A DNA stretch of 64,000 nucleotides, from positions 26,503-90,502 of the forward strand of contig JBMFIG010000004.1 in NCBI GenBank assembly GCA_049976425.1, read 5' to 3'. The position numbers and the translations under genes are program-made. The notes beneath the pieces are model-generated. The model had not been told where the DNA came from and made no database searches. It saw nothing but the letters and a program-made list of their open reading frames with translations. This document shows positions 7,385 through 33,958 of this stretch, piece by piece; position 1 is the stretch's first letter, and every line of letters starts with the position of its first letter. The DNA comes from Thermoproteus sp. Its GTDB lineage: Archaea > Thermoproteota > Thermoprotei > Thermoproteales > Thermoproteaceae.

Positions 7385-8529
7385 CTATAAAAATACGGGA
7401 ACTCCTCTGAACTCCTCCACAAAGGCCTTGATCGCCTTTTCGTCCACGGGCCTCTTCCTTGCGGCGTAGTCCTTGACGCGCCTCAAGATATAGTCGACGA
7501 GCTCTGGGCTGGGCTCCAGCCCCATCTGCTTCAAGGCCCACTCGACGGAGTGCCTCCCCGAGTGCTTCCCCAGCACTATCCTCCTCCTGTTCCCCACGGC
7601 CTCGGGCATCATGGGCTCGTAGGTGAAGGGGTTGTTGAGGACGCCGTGGACGTGGATGCCGGACTCGTGGCTGAAGGCGTTGTCGCCCACGACTGCTTTG
7701 TTGGGCTGTAGCTGGATCCCGAAGAGCCTAGCCACCAGCCGCGACGTCTCGTAGAGCCGCTCCATCCTAAGGCCGACCTCGCGGCCCAGCAGAAAGCGGG
7801 CGGCGGCGGCCACCTCCTCCAGCGCCGCGTTGCCGCCCCTCTCGCCGAACCCGTTGACAGTGACTTGGGCCACCTCGGCGCCCGCCTCTATCGCGGCGAT
7901 GGTGTTGGCCACCGCCATGCCGAAGTCGTCGTGGCAGTGCACGTGCATGGGGACCGGCGGGAGCTCGGCCTTGAGGTGCTCCACCAGATACCTCATCCTG
8001 CTGGGCGTCATCACGCCGACGGTGTCGGGCACGTTTATCTCGTCGGCGCCTGCCTCTATCGCCGTTCTGAACGCCTCGACGAGGAAGCCCAAATCGCTCC
8101 TGGTGGCGTCCTCGGCGCTGAAGAGAACCCTAACCCCTCTGGACTTGGCGTACTCCACAGACTCAGCGATCCTCCGCAACACCTCGTCCCGCGTCATCCT
8201 CAGCTTGTACTTCATGTGTATATCGCTCGTCGCTATGAAGACGTGGACCATGTCCACATCGGCGTCGACGGCGGCGTCTATGTCGGCCTTGTTGGCCCGC
8301 GCCAGGCTGGCCACCTCTGAATACGCCGCGTCCCGCGCTATTCTCCTCACCGCCTCGGCCTCCTCGGGCGACACGGCCGCGAAGCCGGCCTCTATATAGT
8401 CCACCTTTAGTTCGTCCAACGCCATGCCTATCTGGACCTTCTCTTCGACGGTCAGAGAGATGCCGGGCATCTGTTCGCCGTCTCTGAGGGTGGTGTCGAA
8501 GAACCTCACCCGGTGAGCCCCGAATCCAT
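7385..8529 (-). CDS. leuA: 2-isopropylmalate synthase lacking the C-terminal regulatory domain; proposed start ATG 8529 with a -1 frameshift at about 8521-8518 (in-frame GTG at 8509 is an alternative start)
   Basis: [23 protein letters not shown] and HESGIH motifs; Leu codon in the leader supports the Leu-pathway assignment. Confidence 0.85.
8506..8529 (-). promoter_or_regulatory. leuA leader ORF MDSGLTG* with slip site TCG-GGG-CTC(Leu)
   Basis: ATG GAT TCG GGG CTC ACC GGG TGA; TTTTATATA at 8555-8547; -1 frame reads [17 protein letters not shown]. Confidence 0.8.
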
Positions 8530-20101: not shown

Positions 20102-20989
20102 TTAGTAGACGGGGGTCAGCCAAGCTAGGTACTTCTCCTCCTTGCCCAGCACAATCCGCCTATACGTCTCGGCTATCTTCTGCGTTATGGGGCCCTTCTG
20201 CAACACCCTTCCGTCTATTTCTATTATCGGCGTGATCTCGGCGGCTGTCCCGACGAAGAACGCCTCGTCGGCCGCGTAGAGCTCCTCCCTCGTTATGCTC
20301 TTCTCCAGGAGCGGTATCCCCAGATCGCCCGCTATCGAGATGACCGTCTCCCTAGTTATGCCCTCGAGGATGCCGTCCTCCAGAGGAGGCGTCATGAGGA
20401 CCCCGCGGCGCACTATAAATATATTCTCGCCGGACCCCTCCACGACCTTGCCCTCGGCGTTCAGCATTATGGCCTCGTCGTATCCCCTGGCCCTCGCCTC
20501 GACGGCCGCCATTATGGAGTTGAGGTATATGCCGGTCGCCTTGGCCATGACGGGCATCATGGAGGTGTGGACCCTCCTCCAGCTCACCACGGCCGCCCTC
20601 ACGCCCTCGACCTTCAGGTACTTGCCGAAGGGTATAGCCGCTATGGCCACAGACGCCTGTAGCCCCCTAACGTCTAGGCTGATCTGGGGCTTGGATATGT
20701 ACGCCACCGGCCTTATGTAGAGGTCCTCCTTGAACCCGTTGGCCCTCACAGTCTCGACGACGGCCTTGGAGAGCTCCTCAGCCGTGTAGGGCACGTCGAG
20801 GCCTATTATCTTGGCGGATCTCAGAAGCCTCTCCATGTGGTCCCTCAGCCTGAAGACGTAGAGGTTCTCGCCGTTCCAGTAGGCCCGGATCCCCTCGAAC
20901 ACGCCGAAGCCGTAGTTGAGGCTCGGCGAGAGCACCGTCACCTTGGCCTCCTCCTCATCCACAAGCCTCCCGTCCAGCCAGACCTTCAT
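20102..20989 (-). CDS. ilvE: Branched-chain amino acid aminotransferase (fold type IV)
   Basis: [38 protein letters not shown] and GTAAEI. Confidence 0.95.
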
Positions 20990-22264: not shown

Positions 22265-24025
22265 ACCTCAACGACACGTCCTCCATCCCCTCGGGCAGAA
22301 TTGCTTGGGTTAGCCAATCGCCGGGCTTCACCCAAGGCAACACGATGTCCTTGTCCTCGTCTATGGTCACGTCTATCACTATAGGCTCGTTGTTCCTCAC
22401 AGCCCACGACACGGCCCTCTCCAGCTCCTCGTAGGTCGACGGCTTGACGCCCTCTATCCCGTAGGCCTCCGCTATCTTCAAGAAGTCGGGGTTCCTCGCG
22501 AACCTCACGGCGATCTGCCTATTGCCGTACATGTAGACCTGCCACTGCTTGACCAGCTGTAAGGACGCGTTGTCGAATATCACCTCGACAAAGGGCAGAT
22601 CGTACTCCCTCACCAGCGCGAGGTTGTTGAAGGTCATCTGGAACGACCCGTCGCCGTCTATACACACGACGGGCCTAGAGCGGTCGGCGAGCTTGGCGCC
22701 GAGAGCCGCAGGTATGCCGAAGCCCATCGTGCCCAGGCCGGCCGACGTTATGAAGGTCCCCGGCTCGTACACCTCCCACCAGATCTCCGACCACATCTGG
22801 TGTCCCCCCACGCCCGTCACGGTGACGGCGTTCGGCGGCGTGGCCCTCCTCACCGCCTTTAGCACCTTCCAGGGCGCGAAGTACTTGAACTTGCCGGCGG
22901 CCTTCTCCATGGCCTCTTCGTACCTCCTCCTGATCTCGTAAAGCCAGGCGAGGAACTTGGGGCTCCTCGCGGCGGCCGACGGCATTAGGTCCAGCATCTC
23001 CCTAAGAGCCTCCTTGGCGTCCGCTATTATGCCGACGGTGGGCTTCACGTTCTTCCCCACCTCGCTTCGGTCGATATCTATATGGATCAGCTTGACCTCG
23101 CCCGACCTAACCATCTCCTGGAGCTCCTTGAACCTCCCCCAAGTCCTGTCGCTGAACCTGGTCCCCACGGCCACCACCACGTCGGCGTTTGCCAAAGCCG
23201 CGTCCGCCTCGGCCCTCCCGTGCATCCCGGCCGGCCCCATATACAGCGGGTGGTTGTGGGGGATGGCGGCCTTCCCGGGCAAGGTCGACACGATGGGCGC
23301 ATTGAGCCTCTCGGCGAGCTCCAGCACCTCCTTGGTGGCGCCCGACCACAACACTCCGCCTCCCGCCAGCACCACCGGCCTCTCCGCCTCCAAGATCATC
23401 TTGACGGCCTTCGCCACGTCCTCCTCCCTGGGCTTGGGAGGTATGAACTTTGCCGCGTTTATCTGTATCTTGGCCTCGCCCCTATACTCCATCAGCTGGA
23501 GATCCCTCGGCAGATCCACCAAGGTCGGTCCGGGCCTCCCCAGCATCGAGATCTCGTAGGCGATCTTGACGGCGGCCGTGGCCTCCTCCGGCCTCTTCAC
23601 CTGGTACACCCACTTGGTTATAGGCGTCGCCACCCCCAATATGTCGGTCTCCTGGAACCCATCCCTCCCGAACACCCACGTGGCTACCTGCCCCGTTATC
23701 GCCGCGACGGGCACCGAGTCCATGTAGGCGTCGGTCAAGCCAGTCACCAAGTTCGTGGCGCCGGGGCCGCTCGTAGCGGCCACCACGGCGGGCCTCCCCG
23801 CTACTCTGGCGTAGCCCTCGGCTGCGTGCACGGCGCCCTGCTCGTGGCGGAACATGACCACCTCTATGTCGTCTACGAAATACGCCGCGTCGAATAGGGC
23901 CATTATAGAGCCGCCCGTTATTCCGAGGATGTGCCTTACCTTGAGCTCCCTAAGCGTGTCGATTATTCTGTCGACGACTCTATTGGGGCGATCCCCTCGA
24001 GCCCCGAAGCGACCCCCGAATCCAT
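22251..24025 (-). CDS. ilvB: Acetolactate synthase large subunit; proposed start ATG 24025 with a -1 frameshift in the leader
   Basis: [32 protein letters not shown] and DGDGSF; the only in-frame start (TTG 24032) lies upstream of the expected transcription start. Confidence 0.92.
23963..24025 (-). promoter_or_regulatory. ilvB leader [23 protein letters not shown] with three slip sites G-GGG-GTC(Val), G-GGG-CTC(Leu), G-GGG-ATC(Ile)
   Basis: ATG GAT TCG GGG GTC GCT TCG GGG CTC GAG GGG ATC ... TAA; TTTAAATA at 24052-24045. Confidence 0.85.
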
Positions 24026-24128
24026 ACGGCAACTATTTAACCTATATTTAAAGATTGTCTTCCTACATAAAAGGCGGAGGAGGCGCCGTACGAGCGGAAT
24101 GCTTAAAAGCTATATAGATACCTGCGCC

Positions 24129-24617
24129 ATGGAGATAAGAGGTCGGGCACTGGTCTACGGCGATAAGATAGACACCGATATAATCATACCGGCCCGCTAT
24201 CTGGTATACACCGACCCCAAGATCTTGGGCGAACACGCCATGGAGCCTCTGGACCCCGACTTCCCCAAGAAGGCCAAAGGCGCCATACTGGTGGCCGGCA
24301 GGGCCTTCGGGATGGGCAGCAGCCGCGAGCAGGCGGCGACGGCCCTCAAGGGCGCCGGCGTCTTAGCCGTCGTGGCCGAGTCCTTCGCCCGCATATTCTT
24401 CCGCAACGCCGTCAACGTAGGCCTTCCCGTCCTTCAAGCCCCCGCCAGGAGCAGAGTGAGAGAGGGCGACGAGCTCCTCGTGAGGCTGGACGCGGGCGAG
24501 GTGGTGAACCTCACCACTGGCGAGGTCATCAAGGGGAAGCCGCTCTCCGGCTTGGTCCTCGACATAATAAAAGCGGGCGGCCTCGTGGAGTACCTAAAGG
24601 CCAGGCCCCGTATATAG
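24129..24617 (+). CDS. leuD: 3-isopropylmalate dehydratase/homoaconitase small subunit
   Basis: [38 protein letters not shown] and GGL. Confidence 0.92.
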
Positions 24618-24666
24618 AGCGAATATAGTCGGCGCTAGGCTTAAATATCCCGCGGCCTCTGCCGCC

Positions 24667-24687
24667 ATGCGTTCGGGGAAAACGTAA
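24667..24687 (+). promoter_or_regulatory. Homocitrate synthase leader ORF MRSGKT* with slip site TCG-GGG-AAA(Lys)
   Basis: ATG CGT TCG GGG AAA ACG TAA; CTTAAATA at 24640-24647; -1 frame reads GENVKILDSTLREGEQ. Confidence 0.85.
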
Positions 24688-26060
24688 AGATCCTCGACTC
24701 GACGCTGAGGGAAGGCGAGCAGACCCCCGGCGTCGTCTTCTCCGAAGATTGGAGGATTAGGATCGCCAAGGCCCTCTCAGATGCCGGCGTCCACATGATA
24801 GAGGTGGGCGATCCCAACGTGGCGCCCGACATAAGGTCGGCCATAGCGAAGATAGTGGCCATGAAGAGAGACGGCGAGATAGCCGGCGAGATCGTGGCCC
24901 ACAGCAGATCGGTCAAGGCAGATATAGAGAACGCCGCGTCGCTCGAGCCCGACAGGGTGGCTATATTCTACGGCGTGAGCGACATACACTTGAAGCACAA
25001 GCACAGGAAGTCGAGGGAGGAGGCCCTGTCCATAATTGCGGAGCACGTGGAGTTCGCGAGGAGCCACGGAGTGCGCGTGAGGTTCACTGCCGAGGACGCC
25101 ACGCGGGCCGACCCCGACTACTTAATACAGGTGGTCAAGACGGCGAGGGATGCGGGAGCCGACAGGGTGAGCATCGCCGACACCGTGGGTATCTTGACGC
25201 CCGAGAAGGCGCGGCGGCTGTTCGCCGAGGTCAAGGAGGCCGTGCCCGACGTGGGGCTCGACATACACGCCCACAACGACCTCGGCATGGCGGTGGCCAA
25301 CTCCTTGGCGGCCGTCGAGGGGGGAGCCGACGTGGTCCACACGACGGTGAACGGCCTCGGCGAGAGGGCAGGGATAACGCCGCTCCAGACGTTCGCCGCG
25401 GCGTACTACTACCACAGGGGGGTGAAGCTGATAGATCTGACTAAGTTGCCCTACCTGGCCTCCTTGGTGGAGGCGGCCAGCGGCATAGCGCAGATGCCCA
25501 CGTTCCCCGTGACCGGCGACAACGCCTTCACGCACAAGGCCGGGGTCCACCAGGCCGGCGTGTTGGCGAGCCCCGAGACCTACGAGCCGTTCCCTCCCGA
25601 GGTGGTGGGCCGCACGAGGGACTTCTCGTTGGACAAATACAGCGGGAGGAAGGCCGTCGCCCACAGGCTCGAGAGGCTCGGCGTCAAGGTCGACGAGGAG
25701 GTCTTGGGGAAGCTCGTGGAGGAGCTGAAGTCCACCAACGCGCGGAGGCTACGCGACGAGGATCTCCTCGAGATGTTGGAGAAGATAACCGGGATGAGGT
25801 ACAGGGCGCAGGTCAACAAGCACATAGAGGCGTACGTCTGGGTGAAAGTCGACGAGAACGTCTACACGACGTCGGTGGCCAGGAGGATCATGGCGATAAG
25901 GGGCGTGACCGGCGTCGGCGAGGTGACGGGCGAGTTCGACATAGTGGCCAAGATATCGGCCGAGAACGCCGAGGAGCTGAACAGGATAATCGAGGAGGTG
26001 AGGGCCGTCAAGGGCGTCAAGTCGACGCTCACCAATATAGTCCTGAAACAGCTTTCATAA
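24667..26060 (+). CDS. Homocitrate synthase with C-terminal Lrp/AsnC (RAM) domain; start ATG 24667 requires a -1 frameshift at 24675-24678
   Basis: DSTLREGEQ motif lies upstream of the first in-frame ATG (24795); HAHNDLG, GLGERAG and HKAGVH; C-terminal VTGEFDIVAKI RAM domain as in Sulfolobus HCS. Confidence 0.88.
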
Positions 26061-26080: not shown

Positions 26081-26755
26081 GTGCCCCTGGTTTCTTGGGA
26101 CGAGGTTACGCCGGAGGAGCTCAAGCGTAGATATAGGGGAGGGCCTCTGCTGATACTGACCCACTGCACCAAGACCAAGAACGTCGAGTGGCGCGCCGTC
26201 GCTGACGCGTTGGCGTCCGCCGGGCTCCCCACGCCCGGCATGGATCTAGAGAGGGAGGAGCTCTATAGATCCGCCTTGAGGGATTTCGTCAAGCCCGCGG
26301 CTGAAATGTATGGGGGCTCCTTCAAGAGGGTCAGGGAAATCGCCGAGGCGGTCGCCAGATGCCTCCCCGTCGACCTCTATATACTGAGCGCGAGATACGG
26401 CTTGATAAGGGCCGACGAGATCGTGGTGCCCTACGAAGCCACGCTGAACGGACTGAGCGCGGCTGAGCTGGAGCGGTGGGCCGAGGCCAGAGGCGTCTGG
26501 GACAAGGCGGTCGAGCTTCTGGAAAAGGGGTACGGGATGGCCGTGGCCTTCCTCCCCGGCAATTATGCCAGAGCCCTCGGGCCGGCTCTAGGCAAGATGC
26601 TGGCCTCGGAGAACGCCCTTCTGTTGATCCCCCAGAGGCTGGCAGGACGTAGCCCCAGAGCGCTTGTGGTGAAGAACAGAGGGATTTTCAGCAGATACGG
26701 CGATCTGTCCAACGCCAGACGCCTTCTAGAGAAAGCCCTCTGCGATCAATATTAA
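26081..26755 (+). CDS. Hypothetical protein, DUF6884/YaaA-like
   Basis: PAAEMYGG...LYILSARYGLI...PYEATL motif. Confidence 0.6.
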   Translation: MPLVSWDEVTPEELKRRYRGGPLLILTHCTKTKNVEWRAVADALASAGLPTPGMDLEREELYRSALRDFVKPAAEMYGGSFKRVREIAEAVARCLPVDLYILSARYGLIRADEIVVPYEATLNGLSAAELERWAEARGVWDKAVELLEKGYGMAVAFLPGNYARALGPALGKMLASENALLLIPQRLAGRSPRALVVKNRGIFSRYGDLSNARRLLEKALCDQY

Positions 26756-26774: not shown

Positions 26775-27755
26775 ATGAAGCTCGCGGTCATCCCAGGCGA
26801 CGGCATAGGGCCCGAGGTGGTGTCGGCCGCGATGAGGGTCGTCGAGGCCGCGGCTAGGAGGTTCTCCATAGACATAGAGGCCAAATACGTCGAGGCGGGA
26901 GACGCGGCGTTGAGGAAGTACGGCAGAGCCATGCCCGACGACGCCTGGCGCGTCGTGGACTCGGCCGACGCCGTCCTCAAAGGCCCCGTCGGCGAGATCG
27001 CATACGACGTCACCTCGGCTATAAGGATGAAGTACGTCCTCTACGCCAACATAAGGCCGGCCAAAAGCCTTCCGGGGGTGCCCTCGGTGAAGCCCATAGA
27101 CTGCGTCTTCATTAGAGAGAACGTCGAGGACGTATACGTGGGGGCCGAGTACAAGGTCGGCGACGTGGCCATCGCGCTCAAGGTCATCACGGGGCAGGGC
27201 ACCAGGAGAGTCGCCAGGATGGCCAGACGCTACGCGGAGATGAGGAGGAGGAAGGTCACCATAGTCACCAAGTCCAACGTGTTGAGGGTGGTGGACGCCT
27301 TCTTCAGAGATGTGGCGAAGGAGGAGCTCAAGGGGCTTGAGGTCGAGGAGATGTACGTGGACGCGGCTGCCATGGAGCTCGTGAGGAACCCCGCCCGCTT
27401 CGACGTGGTGCTCACGACCAACCAATACGGCGATATACTCACCGACCTCGCGGCGCAGGTGGCCGGAAGCCTCGGGCTGGCGCCGTCGGCAAATATAGGG
27501 GACTCCAAGGCCATGTTCGAGCCGGTCCACGGAGCCGCGTTCGACATAGCCGGCAAGGGCATAGCGAATCCCGTGGCGACCATACTCTCGACGGCTTTGA
27601 TGTTCGAGTGGATGGGGCGCAACGACGCGGCGGCGGCCGTGAGGAGGGCTGTGGAGGAGGCTCTGAGGCGCGGCGTCGCTACGCCGGACGTGGGAGGCCG
27701 CTCCACCACCGAGGAGGTGGGCAAATATATAGCATCCCTCGTCGAAAATATATAA
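26775..27755 (+). CDS. leuB: 3-isopropylmalate/homoisocitrate dehydrogenase family
   Basis: PGDGIGPEV, RENVED, NQYGDILTD, FEPVHGAAFDIAGKGIANP. Confidence 0.9.
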   Translation: MKLAVIPGDGIGPEVVSAAMRVVEAAARRFSIDIEAKYVEAGDAALRKYGRAMPDDAWRVVDSADAVLKGPVGEIAYDVTSAIRMKYVLYANIRPAKSLPGVPSVKPIDCVFIRENVEDVYVGAEYKVGDVAIALKVITGQGTRRVARMARRYAEMRRRKVTIVTKSNVLRVVDAFFRDVAKEELKGLEVEEMYVDAAAMELVRNPARFDVVLTTNQYGDILTDLAAQVAGSLGLAPSANIGDSKAMFEPVHGAAFDIAGKGIANPVATILSTALMFEWMGRNDAAAAVRRAVEEALRRGVATPDVGGRSTTEEVGKYIASLVENI

Positions 27756-28936: not shown

Positions 28937-30159
28937 TTATTTCTTATCCATAGATCTTTTACTTAACGCCGTCAAGCTATGTAGCGACCACATCTCTATG
29001 AACCCCCTCGCCTCCTCGTCGGTCGGGTACCACCCCTTGGAGTAGTCCGCCAGCTCCTTGCTGTAGGTGCCGTATTTGGAGTCCCTGGCGACTATCTGCA
29101 CAGATCCCTTGTAGAGCTTCGCCTTCACCCACCCGTCGACCCACCTCTCCATCTCGCCGGCGGCCGCCTCGATGGCGAGCCTGAGCGGCTCCACCCACAG
29201 CCCCTGGTAGACTAGGTCTGCCCAGTAGGGGTCGAGGACGTTGTGCTTGAACCTGAGCTCCCTCGGCGTGAGGACCAGCTTCTCGAGATCCCTATGCGAC
29301 TCGAAGAGTATGACCGCGGCGGGGGCCTCGTACACCTCTCTGCTCTTGAAGCCCACCAGCCTGCTCTCGATGTGGTCTATCCTCCCGACCCCCGCGGCTC
29401 CGCCTATCTGGTTAAGCGCCTTCACGAGGGAGAGCATGTCCATGCGCTCGCCGTTGATAGCCCTAGGCAGGCCCCCCTCGAACTCTATCTCCACGTAGGT
29501 TGGCTGGTCGGGCGCCTTCTCGGGCTGGACGGTCCACTTGAAGGCGTCCTCGGGCGGCTCGAGCCTCTGGTCGTCGACGGGCCCTCCCTCTATGGAGCGG
29601 CTCCAGAGGTTCTCGTCTATGCTGTACTTCTTGTGGGCCTCCGGCACAGGTATGCCGTGCTTCTTGGCGTACTCGATCTCCTGCTCCCTGCCCATGCCCC
29701 AAACCCTCGCGGGGGCCAACACCTCCAAGTCGGGCGCAAGGGCCTTTGCGGTGACGTCGAAACGGACCTGGTCGTTTCCCTTGCTGGTGCTCCCGTGGGC
29801 TATGGCGTCAGCCCCCTCGCGCCTCGCCACCTCGACGGTCTTCGCGACAATCAGCGGCCTGGCCAACGCAGTGCCTAGGGGGTACTTCCCCTCGTACATG
29901 GCGTTCATGAGGACGGCCCTGCCGACGTACTCCTCGGCGAATTCCCTCTTGGCGTCTATGGTGTAGTGCTTGACCGCGCCGGCCTTATAGGCCCTCGCCT
30001 CGACCTCCGAGAAGTCCTCCTCCTGCCCTACGTCGACCGTGACCGTGATAACCTCGGCGTTGTACTTCTCCGAGAGCCACTTGATGGCGACCGTGGTGTC
30101 GAGCCCGCCCGAGTAGGCGAGCGCGATCCTGCTTATTCTCGCCCCGACTTACTCGCCAT
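28937..30159 (-). CDS. argG: Argininosuccinate synthase; proposed start ATG 30159 with a -1 frameshift at about 30145-30142
   Basis: N-terminal LAYSGGLDT motif is in frame but has no ATG/GTG/TTG before it; YPLGTALARP, HGSTSKGNDQVRF and KSREVYEAP. Confidence 0.92.
30133..30159 (-). promoter_or_regulatory. argG leader ORF MASKSGRE* with slip site TCG-GGG-CGA(Arg)
   Basis: ATG GCG AGT AAG TCG GGG CGA GAA TAA; ATG overlaps the lysW 3' end after a purine-rich tract; -1 frame reads GARISRIALAYSGGLDT. Confidence 0.85.
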
Positions 30160-33276: not shown

Positions 33277-33958
33277 GCCTCCTCCAGCCCGACCTCGGCC
33301 AGGAGCCTCGCCCTAGCCTCGTCCAGCTCCGGCACGGGGTCTACGTCTATCACGCGCTCCCCGTCGTCGTAGACGCCGAGCGTGATCTCAGCGTACTTGA
33401 GGCCCAGCGACCTCAACACCTCGCCCGCTATCCCGTCGATCCCGGGCACGGCGAACACCTTCCTGACCTCTCTGGGCTTGGGCATGGCGATGCTACCCTT
33501 GGCCAGGGGGTTCCTCATGTAGTTGCGGTGCTCCACGACGCTTTTGGCCCCCTCTACGCTAGTCACCGACACGTCTAGGCCCAGGCGCCAGACGGTCGCG
33601 AGGAGCCACGGCGGCTTGAAGTCCACCTTCTCCACGGCCTCCTCGTCGGAGAACACGAAGAAGTGGGGGCCGTATTTGGGCAACCAGTACAGCCTATTGA
33701 GCGCGTTGTATATGGCGTATGAGGGGTTTATCGATCTGCGGAACAGGGAGGCGTACACAGCGCCGAGGTACTGGTTCCTCGTCCTTATGAAGACGGTGAA
33801 GTCCCCGCCCTCGACATGTCCCTGGGATATATCGAGGATATCGGCATGCGCGCCGCGGGCCGATAGGAGCTTGGCGAGAAGCCTCTCGCCTAGCTCGGGC
33901 TTCTCGGATAGTATGAGTATCCTCGCCCCGTTGGCCCCGCTTTCCCCGCAAGGTCCAT
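33273..33958 (-). CDS. Degenerate LysX/ArgX (RimK ATP-grasp)-like protein, about 228 aa; start ATG 33958 requires a -1 frameshift
   Basis: Open frame RILILSEKPELGERLL...FIRT...SINPSYAI..ALNR...IDVDPVPEL parallels LysX (IN...I...D; EVN.VPEF); first gene of the lysY-lysZ operon with ATGA overlap. Confidence 0.6.
33890..33958 (-). promoter_or_regulatory. Leader ORF MDLAGKAGPTGRGYSYYPRSPS* with three slip sites G-GGG-AAA(Lys), G-GGG-CCA(Pro), G-GGG-CGA(Arg)
   Basis: ATG GAC CTT GCG GGG AAA GCG GGG CCA ACG GGG CGA ... TAG; TTTATATA at 33986-33979. Confidence 0.85.

Follow-up and report, generated by a model that had tools for sequence, protein, structure and literature searches.

The stretch of Thermoproteus sp. 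DNA analysed here (64,000 nucleotides of contig JBMFIG010000004.1, hereafter the window, to whose first letter all positions refer unless a contig is named) carries on its forward strand a gene for homocitrate synthase (HCS) whose coding sequence overlaps a leader of six codons written in another reading frame. The leader, at 24667-24687 (+), reads ATG CGT TCG GGG AAA ACG TAA (frame 0) and specifies M R S G K T before its stop; the enzyme is encoded in the frame -1 relative to it, GGG at 24675 and GAA at 24678 opening the series G E N V K I L D S T L R E G E Q. This -1 open reading frame (ORF; 24675-26060, +) runs uninterrupted for 461 codons to the stop at 26058-26060. Upstream it is closed by the TAA at 24642-24644, inside the TATA-like box TTAAATAT (24642-24649, +), which is of typical archaeal type and lies 18 nt before the leader ATG. 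Downstream, the first ATG, GTG or TTG in the enzyme frame is the ATG at 24795-24797 (+), 40 codons beyond the point at which the frames would be exchanged and past the catalytic motif; the ORF beginning there (24795-26060, 421 amino acids, starting MIEVGD) lacks the first 40 residues, the catalytic motif included. The leader, the -1 position of the motif, the upstream stop and the lack of a start before 24795 had all been described in an earlier note made from the sequence alone, and all proved exact.

The two frames meet at the four-base run G_GGG (24675-24678, +), in which a Gly codon is available both in frame 0 (24676-24678) and in frame -1 (24675-24677). This putative slip site is followed by AAA (24679-24681, +), a Lys codon that would occupy the A site while the Gly-tRNA is in the P site, and then by ACG and the frame-0 stop TAA (24685-24687, +), at which translation by unshifted ribosomes ends. 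From this layout and its counterparts in relatives and in other genes, recoding at G_GGG is very probably obligatory, and it is quite probable that HCS is produced by a programmed -1 frameshift acting as a translational attenuator, that is, as a lysine sensor. The predicted trans-frame product would consist of M-R-S followed by the 461 residues of the -1 ORF, 464 amino acids in all.

The -1 ORF matches the homocitrate synthase equivalog model TIGR02146 (LysS_fung_arch, NCBIfam) over residues 6-353 with 514.5 bits against a cutoff of 413.55, and its best PDB match is the homocitrate synthase 6ktq_A (E 3.2e-147). The HMGL-like catalytic (DRE-TIM) domain PF00682 is covered from position 2 to 260 of its 260 (E 1.2e-75; residues 4-265, 24684-25469, +), the intact motif D-x-T-L-R-E-G-E-Q (LDSTLREGEQ) being found solely in the -1 frame, and the Pfam HCS post-HMGL domain follows at residues 279-357. 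The C-terminal RAM (Lrp/AsnC ligand-binding) domain, which the earlier note had also recognized, is confirmed by PF01037 at residues 388-459 (25836-26051, +; E 1.3e-15), and the LysM regulator model NF040947 matches residues 376-459 (E 3.1e-19). The RAM domain of the Sulfolobus homocitrate synthase reportedly mediates lysine feedback and, by analogy, the one described here may do the same.

Conservation of the two-frame arrangement

The arrangement was compared within the family of the source genome (f1, with three genera, g1, g2 and g3) and with its sister family (f2). A DNA search in 31 relatives gave 19 matches and in all of them the aligned start consists of an out-of-frame ATG followed by GGGGA. 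A protein search in 61 genomes of the order identified an HCS orthologue in 28/28 f1 relatives; with the window's own locus this makes 29, of which 28 are readable, one (L049) having been left out for a 100-N scaffold gap over its start. All 28 readable loci have the form ATG-(1, 2 or 3 codons)-NNG GGG AAA, with one, two and three codons in 1, 23 and 4 loci, respectively, and all have the enzyme in the -1 frame, the distance between ATG and GGGG invariably keeping the frame of the ATG. The base preceding GGG is always G, while the codon to which it belongs changes (TCG in 18 loci, CAG in 5, GCG in 2, and CCG, GAG and GTG in one each); the sensor codon is AAA throughout, and the frame-0 stop lies 2-11 codons beyond it. 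These data uphold the earlier proposal that the shift is a -1 shift on G_GGG.

Outside the family the picture changes: in 8/8 f2 orthologues, which share 58-62% identity, GGGGAAA is missing and the gene opens at an ordinary ATG of its own frame. The two-frame architecture is present in 28/28 f1 loci vs 0/8 f2 loci, and its conservation in f1 points to purifying selection on the shift site. Similarly, no G_GGG leader was found in f2 at the acetolactate synthase gene ilvB (4 loci) or at carA (5 loci). Among 91 genomes of the class, an HCS orthologue at E <= 1e-140 occurs only in f1 (22/22) and f2 (4/15); the S. acidocaldarius homologue in the protein database begins MKVGILDSTLREGEQ.

The first explanation to be weighed against such a layout is trivial: the sequence or its assembly may be in error, or the gene may have become a pseudogene not long ago. 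The G4A4 run is a pair of homopolymers and the source genome is an assembly of 96 contigs; the same out-of-frame layout is nevertheless shared by the 28/28 readable loci of three genera, many of the independently sequenced genomes that possess it being single-contig, and the HCS ORF is intact over its 461 codons. Furthermore, a contig assembled independently from DNA run X1 spans 24451-24950 at a depth of 16.8 without an inserted or deleted letter, although its support is weak since run X1 may be the source sample. The continuous ORF created by five A or five G, which the earlier note had named as the outcome contrary to its proposal, is not seen in this assembly, and the orthologues agree with the note's opinion that a homopolymer error is unlikely. 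On the strength of the 28 loci and of the X1 contig, error was rejected and can be regarded as almost negligible.

More substantial is the possibility that MRSGKT is the peptide of a separate upstream sensor ORF and that synthesis of the enzyme has its own start in the -1 frame, by reinitiation after termination or from a non-canonical codon (GTA, ATC, ATA or CTC) just before LDSTL. This possibility can point to three other leaders, discussed below, whose frame-0 stop overlaps a GTG of the enzyme frame, namely those of the isopropylmalate synthase LeuA (GTGA), of isoleucyl-tRNA synthetase (IleRS; GTGA) and of TrpE (GGTGGTAA), to the GTG or ATG that occupies this place in 4/28 HCS orthologues, and to the choice of Ile or Leu codons as starts by the annotation pipelines (MILDSTL, MLDSTL). 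On the other hand, 24/28 HCS loci have no ATG, GTG or TTG in the -1 frame between slip site and LDSTL, the codon before L being variable (ATC, ATT, ATA, TTG, GTA), and in 12/28 the frame-0 stop is situated at or beyond the L of LDSTL, so that termination followed by reinitiation cannot yield an intact enzyme there. Moreover, an independent start leaves unexplained the constant G_GGG before the sensor and an enzyme that is always in -1 and never in +1, and reinitiation behind a leader translated to its end would yield more enzyme at times of ample amino-acid supply, the opposite of what feedback demands. An independent start is accordingly considered improbable.

The difficulty that this gene poses to annotation is apparent from the public records of the orthologues, which carry at least six different N-termini: forms of 421-426 amino acids cut at MIEVGD, forms of 445 and 448 starting inside the domain, forms of 459 and 464 beginning at Leu or Ile codons and forms of 475 and 489 extended through the promoter. 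The P. aerophilum record is named "with possible unusual start codon", and one orthologue record is annotated as an AsnC-family regulator. The 5'-end annotation of the whole set of genes described in the next section is probably wrong in family f1.

Leaders and putative sensor codons across the genome

The string ATG..GGGGAAA occurs 12 times in the whole genome and three occurrences combine a TATA-like box with a long -1 ORF: those of HCS, of LysX and of a 224-aa ORF preceding an ArgC/LysY-like gene. A general scan was anchored to promoters, because a genome with 60% GC offers thousands of spurious open frames; it accepted an ATG only if an A/T-rich box lay 24-36 nt before it and if G_GGG occurred in its frame within 7 codons; frame 0 had to end after no more than 30 further codons, and another frame had to remain open for 120 codons or more. 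With G_GGG the scan returned 28 matches having the long frame in -1 and 8 having it in +1; the corresponding figures are 5 and 2 for C_CCC, 11 and 1 for A_AAA, and 3 and 5 for T_TTT. Amino-acid biosynthesis or aminoacyl-tRNA synthetase genes account for 16 of the 28 G_GGG/-1 matches. Ten of the remaining 12 were tested with Pfam, seven of them matching no family, one matching Big_3_5, one an internal ABC_tran fragment and one the metallo-beta-lactamase fold, the last with an in-frame start 11 codons in; for the other two, which are a proteasome-like ORF and a CDF transporter, in-frame starts are found 2 and 6 codons in. Lacking a family, being internal to a gene or having an in-frame start nearby, these 12 were treated as noise, and no amino-acid gene with a mismatched sensor is found among them. 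A site at 20595 (+) of contig C5 of genome G000 reads ATG TGG GGG TGA, G_GGG being followed directly by a stop, and is accompanied in -1 by a hydrophobic ORF of 437 codons belonging to no known family; a GTG in the -1 frame overlaps the site and may be an ordinary start.

With ArgG and AroD, added from a scan without the promoter filter, the regulon comprises about 18 leaders, a G_GGG-codon leader standing before at least 17 genes besides HCS. If the sensor is defined as the codon immediately following each in-frame G_GGG of the frame-0 leader, HCS and LysX have AAA (Lys), and the operon of the 224-aa ORF and ArgC has AAA (Lys), CCA (Pro) and CGA (Arg). In the branched-chain and threonine pathways, acetolactate synthase (IlvB) has GTC (Val), CTC (Leu) and ATC (Ile), isopropylmalate synthase (LeuA) CTC (Leu), citramalate synthase (CimA) ATC (Ile), IleRS ATT (Ile) and threonine synthase (ThrC) ACA (Thr). 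TGG (Trp) is found in TrpE, in a TrpB-like protein and in tryptophanyl-tRNA synthetase (TrpRS), CGA (Arg) in CarA and ArgG, TGT (Cys) in cysteinyl-tRNA synthetase (CysRS), TAC (Tyr) in AroD, TAC (Tyr) and TGG (Trp) in the transketolase-N gene of the aro operon and TTC (Phe) in prephenate dehydratase (PheA); a pyridoxal phosphate enzyme without function assignment has TGC (Cys). The first sensor corresponds to the pathway product or to the substrate of the synthetase in 17/17 genes with an assigned function, which generalizes the remark, made at first for HCS, that the Lys codon after G_GGG names the product of the pathway. A sequence that permits the P-site tRNA to re-pair at -1 is present in the 28/28 HCS orthologues and in every leader of the regulon. 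The sequences show a two-frame architecture, its strict conservation and, across about 18 leaders, the match of sensor with product. Going one step further, it is likely that the family of Thermoproteus and Pyrobaculum possesses a genome-wide regulon of at least 17 operons and synthetase genes, each switched on when the ribosome slips by -1 on G_GGG near the beginning of a leaderless mRNA because the next aminoacyl-tRNA is scarce, and the one, two or three sensor codons of a leader may encode single or multivalent control.

Four members of this set lie in the window and had been invoked in the earlier note as parallel cases; all four are real, their leaders starting at 24025, 8529, 33958 and 30159 on the reverse strand. 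The leader of IlvB (23963-24025, -), the acetolactate synthase large subunit and divergent neighbour of HCS, has 20 codons and three in-frame G_GGG, followed by GTC, CTC and ATC, the enzyme being in -1 from 24017; the enzyme matches TIGR00118 with 594.6 bits, and ORF finders place its start at the TTG at 24032. In the leader of LeuA (8506-8529, -), ATG GAT TCG GGG CTC ACC GGG TGA, encoding MDSGLTG, a Leu sensor again precedes an enzyme in -1; as its TGA overlaps an enzyme-frame GTG (GTGA), reinitiation is a live alternative for this gene. The leader at 33890-33958 (-), with G_GGG AAA, G_GGG CCA and G_GGG CGA, belongs to the 224-aa ORF upstream of the ArgC/LysY-like gene, an ORF that matches no Pfam or NCBIfam family. 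Finally, the ArgG (argininosuccinate synthase) leader (30133-30159, -), ATG GCG AGT AAG TCG GGG CGA GAA TAA, carries an Arg sensor; the 36 nt that precede it contain no TATA-like box, and its place may therefore be internal to an operon and not at the 5' end of a transcript.

Isopropylmalate synthase (7385-8521 of the window) and citramalate synthase (contig C8) are encoded by separate paralogues, the former with a Leu and the latter with an Ile sensor; together with the genes that adjoin HCS, they lend indirect support to a presumed specificity of HCS for 2-oxoglutarate rather than for 2-oxoisovalerate or pyruvate. HCS is adjoined by a gene for a LeuD/HacB-type small subunit (24129-24614) and, on the other side, by an ORF of 224 amino acids (26081-26752, +), for which no NCBIfam family was found at E <= 1e-20, and then by a gene of the isopropylmalate/homoisocitrate dehydrogenase type (26775-27752).

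Within f1 the sensor codons vary in an instructive manner, as seen from the leaders of HCS, IleRS, ThrC, CarA, IlvB and the 224-aa operon, which were compared across 29 genomes. CarA has CGA in 29/29 (28 recognized by script and one by eye). The IleRS site is present in 22/27 orthologues, with ATT in 18 and ATC in 4, whereas the other five have a plain in-frame ATG and no G_GGG site. ThrC has its leader in 26/28 orthologues: ACA in 13, ACG in one and tandem Ile and Thr sites in 12, these last being genomes of a single genus in which G_GGG ATT and then G_GGG ACA or ACG follow each other in frame 0 and both lead into the same -1 frame. IlvB leaders occur in 28/28 orthologues, with Val, Leu and Ile sensors in 14, Val and Leu in 12, Val, Leu and again Val in one and Leu only in one, the codons being exchanged for synonymous ones (GTC, GTT or GTA for Val, CTC or CTT for Leu, ATC or ATT for Ile). 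The 224-aa operon has its leader in 27/27, in the order Lys-Pro-Arg in genus g1 (9 genomes) and Pro-Lys-Arg in g3 (15), with three reduced forms; the 224-aa ORF itself was found in 0/2 genomes of genus g2 with the query used. If frame 0 is read as far as the codon after G_GGG and the amino acid specified by that codon is what counts, one expects the unit of G_GGG and codon to change synonymously, to be duplicated and to be permuted, as is the case here; selection thus appears to act on the frame-0 sensor codon.

Three cases deserve separate mention. In one of the five IleRS genes that have a plain start (L094, genome G015) the sequence ATG TCC CGT GGG GAT TTT... retains GGGGAT and needs no shift, the other four genomes having lost the site entirely; it reads M S R G D F K L, its in-frame G-D-F-K-L being the same residues that the -1 frame gives at other IleRS loci, and this natural variant favours a product in which Gly is followed by the -1 codon. 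In the ThrC loci of genus g3 (L108-L122) the Ile and Thr sensors share a single leader (G_GGG ATT TCG GGG ACA/ACG), an OR-logic comparable to that of the E. coli thr operon leader. At the CarA gene of an f2 genome (L217, G021) the only ATGs before the enzyme (ATG CGA ATG ATT CGG...) are displaced from its frame by +1, and the conserved N-terminus has no canonical start ahead of it, which could reflect a different recoding site or a non-canonical start.

The same collection of leaders bears on whether the frame is changed in the mRNA rather than on the ribosome. RNA polymerase might add one G or A in the tract GGGGAAAA, giving an in-frame mRNA; on the presumed transcript the tract would extend from +9 to +16, a region in which the RNA-DNA hybrid is short, and an identical product, M R S G E N V K, would result. 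Nevertheless, most other leaders have a non-repetitive codon after GGGG, and slippage offers no reason for a sensor that names the amino acid of the pathway in 17/17 cases, for its synonymous variation or for tandem sensors. The tracts on which transcriptional slippage is known to occur are also far longer than a run of four G, and we regard this explanation as very improbable. Dependence of slippage on the length of poly-A is mentioned in PMC3711429.

Equally improbable, in our estimate, is that the -1 shift is constitutive or that something other than aminoacyl-tRNA is sensed, for instance by a nascent M-x-S-G peptide together with the free amino acid, in the manner of TnaC or of the arginine attenuator peptide. 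The short leaders do share an S-G or x-G ending before the sensor; the codon before Gly, however, varies (TCG, CAG, GCG, CCG, GAG, GTG), as does the distance from ATG (0 to 4 codons), and leaders with two or three sensors repeat nothing but the G_GGG-codon unit. In addition, the presence of IleRS, TrpRS and CysRS in the set fits the charging of tRNA better than the concentration of a free amino acid. That G_GGG leaders sense amino acids through aminoacyl-tRNA remains the likely to quite likely reading.

Proposed mechanism and its place among known systems

In the f1 orthologues displayed, the leader ATG is preceded by an A/T-rich box at a distance of about 26-33 nt, these positions being crude, and the HCS transcript would accordingly be leaderless, with its start near the leader ATG. 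In the mechanism proposed, transcription would begin about 26 nt after the TATA-like box and produce an mRNA opening with AUG CGU UCG GGG AAA ACG UAA. Translation would start at this 5' AUG and bring Met-Arg-Ser-Gly-tRNA(Gly) to GGG in the P site, while AAA, a rare Lys codon, would lie in the A site. An ample supply of Lys-tRNA would allow AAA and ACG to be decoded; the ribosome would stop at UAA and no enzyme would be made. If Lys-tRNA is scarce, the A site would stay empty and the peptidyl-tRNA(Gly) would move its pairing by one base in the upstream direction, to the identical GGG within G_GGG; GAA (Glu) would then be displayed in the A site and the whole enzyme would be translated in -1 as M R S G E N V K I L D S T L R E G E Q..., the N-terminal peptide predicted being M-R-S-G-E-N-V-K. 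The RAM domain of the finished HCS would add an allosteric lysine feedback. The direction of control would be the one required of feedback, plentiful Lys-tRNA leading to termination after six codons and scarcity to synthesis of the enzyme, and the same would hold for the three synthetase genes.

The codons themselves indicate which tRNA would move. In the -1 displacement the P-site tRNA-Gly re-pairs perfectly (GGG to GGG), whereas most A-site tRNAs are unable to do so (ATT to GAT, TGG to GTG, CGA to GCG); this points to a slip of the P-site tRNA only, with an empty A site, which is most plausible if the shift takes place when the cognate aminoacyl-tRNA is scarce. We infer that the shift is ribosomal and not transcriptional, that it depends on the supply of aminoacyl-tRNA and that it would rise upon lysine starvation. 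Some sensors are rare codons, their shares for the respective amino acid in 591 long ORFs being 15% for Lys AAA, 6% for Ile ATT, 9% for Thr ACA and 3% for Arg CGA.

Several points weigh against this reading. The HCS slip site, G_GGG_AAA, does not conform to the classical heptamer X_XXY_YYZ, and neither a stimulatory fold in 24667-24790 (single-sequence folding of 124 nt; z-score +0.48, 133 of 200 shuffles folding equally well or better) nor an upstream element of Shine-Dalgarno type was recognized, so that a high efficiency would have to be due solely to the vacant A site. Long ORFs do not avoid in-frame NNG GGG (observed/expected 1.10), and G_GGG by itself is therefore not strongly slippery. 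Not all sensors are rare, Leu CTC (35%), Val GTC (41%), Tyr TAC (76%) and Phe TTC (89%) being common codons. The joint chance of the 17/17 match, about 1e-22 when calculated from the codons that follow in-frame G_GGG inside the 591 long ORFs, is only illustrative, because the genes of the regulon were recognized after the pattern had been seen. Lastly, in the 4/28 HCS orthologues and several leaders (LeuA, IleRS, TrpE) already mentioned, where a -1 GTG or ATG overlaps or adjoins the frame-0 stop, termination-reinitiation is for that reason possible.

The lack of a stimulator has a precedent. In the "hungry-codon" -1 shift a single tRNA slips in the P site when the A-site aminoacyl-tRNA is limiting (PMC8211752, PMC5009743, PMC6547452 and PMC6771820), and shifts of this kind need no stimulatory RNA, so that the absence of a structure or of an RNA family is what would be expected; no Rfam family, T-box and lysine riboswitch included, matched in 24400-24900 at E <= 1. 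With the cases described by Gallant and Lindsley and with those of HIV-1 and dnaX, the leaders would have in common a perfect P-site re-pairing one base upstream, no stimulatory RNA and an outcome decided by aminoacyl-tRNA supply. They differ from them in that those cases concern laboratory starvation or the modulation of viral sites, while the site described here would be a dedicated, conserved on-switch at the 5' ends of leaderless mRNAs, with a pathway-specific sensor codon across about 18 operons.

Among natural frameshifts, that of prfB, the gene of release factor 2, is autoregulatory, goes in the +1 direction and is stimulated by an internal Shine-Dalgarno sequence. As in prfB, a short frame-0 ORF ends early unless the frame is shifted, the speed at which the A site is read would decide and the product would feed back; unlike in the leaders, in prfB the sensor is a stop codon read by the gene's own product and a single gene is involved. 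Within the Archaea, fucA1 of Saccharolobus solfataricus is likewise a cellular gene that needs a -1 shift for its full-length enzyme; it is reportedly shifted at an A_AAA_AAT heptamer and, unlike the leaders, is a single gene with a mid-gene site and no known amino-acid sensing. It is given as the only archaeal case of programmed -1 ribosomal frameshifting in a 2021 review (PMC8211752), and the GeneTack survey of 2013 names, in the portion available, neither these genera nor these genes. No description of a G_GGG-sensor mechanism was found in the literature covered, which leaves out most subscription journals, so that a prior report is possible.

As to regulatory logic, the closest parallels are bacterial. 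The leaders of trpL, thrL, ilvL, leuL, pheL and hisL are equally short, contain codons for the regulating amino acid and serve the same classes of operons, and the multivalent combinations are similar as well, with Val, Leu and Ile for acetolactate synthase and Thr and Ile for threonine synthase (cf. the E. coli thr leader). Unlike in bacterial attenuation, each amino acid is represented by one sensor codon and not by a series, the ribosome's entry into the frame of the enzyme would itself be the readout, and no terminator or antiterminator RNA was found, the HCS leader being followed by no significant structure and overlapped by the enzyme ORF. With the T-box riboswitches of Firmicutes the leaders share the combination of synthetase and biosynthesis genes and a single specifier codon for each, and they would share the response to tRNA charging; T-boxes are, however, structured RNAs of about 200 nt that bind uncharged tRNA, whereas in the leaders, with neither structure nor Rfam match, the ribosome would be the sensor. 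Leaderless short ORFs with polycysteine in mycobacteria are cysteine-responsive attenuators (bioRxiv 10.1101/834739); they resemble the present leaders as 5' short ORFs whose sensor codons control downstream biosynthetic genes and, as far as that source goes, differ from them in being bacterial, in using runs of Cys codons and in involving no frameshift into the enzyme ORF. As read here, the G_GGG leaders are a form of programmed frameshifting whose regulatory logic is that known from attenuation and from T-boxes.

To our knowledge, no equivalent of attenuation or of T-boxes has been described for archaea, in which the sensing of amino acids at the level of translation is largely unknown. If the proposed mechanism is correct, these leaders would represent a third independent solution to amino-acid sensing, beside bacterial attenuation and T-boxes, and the first natural, dedicated regulatory use of hungry-codon frameshifting, turning a laboratory curiosity into a physiological mechanism. 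A four-base slip site and one codon would then constitute a minimal programmable sensor of tRNA charging and a compact design for synthetic amino-acid-responsive switches working at 90-100 degrees C. For the organisms themselves, the number of archaeal genes with a -1 frameshift would rise from one to dozens per genome, the regulatory inputs of an operon (Val+Leu+Ile, Thr+Ile, Lys+Pro+Arg, Tyr+Trp) would be legible from its sequence, and the truncated, extended or "unusual" annotated starts of dozens of essential biosynthetic and synthetase genes would be both explained and corrected.

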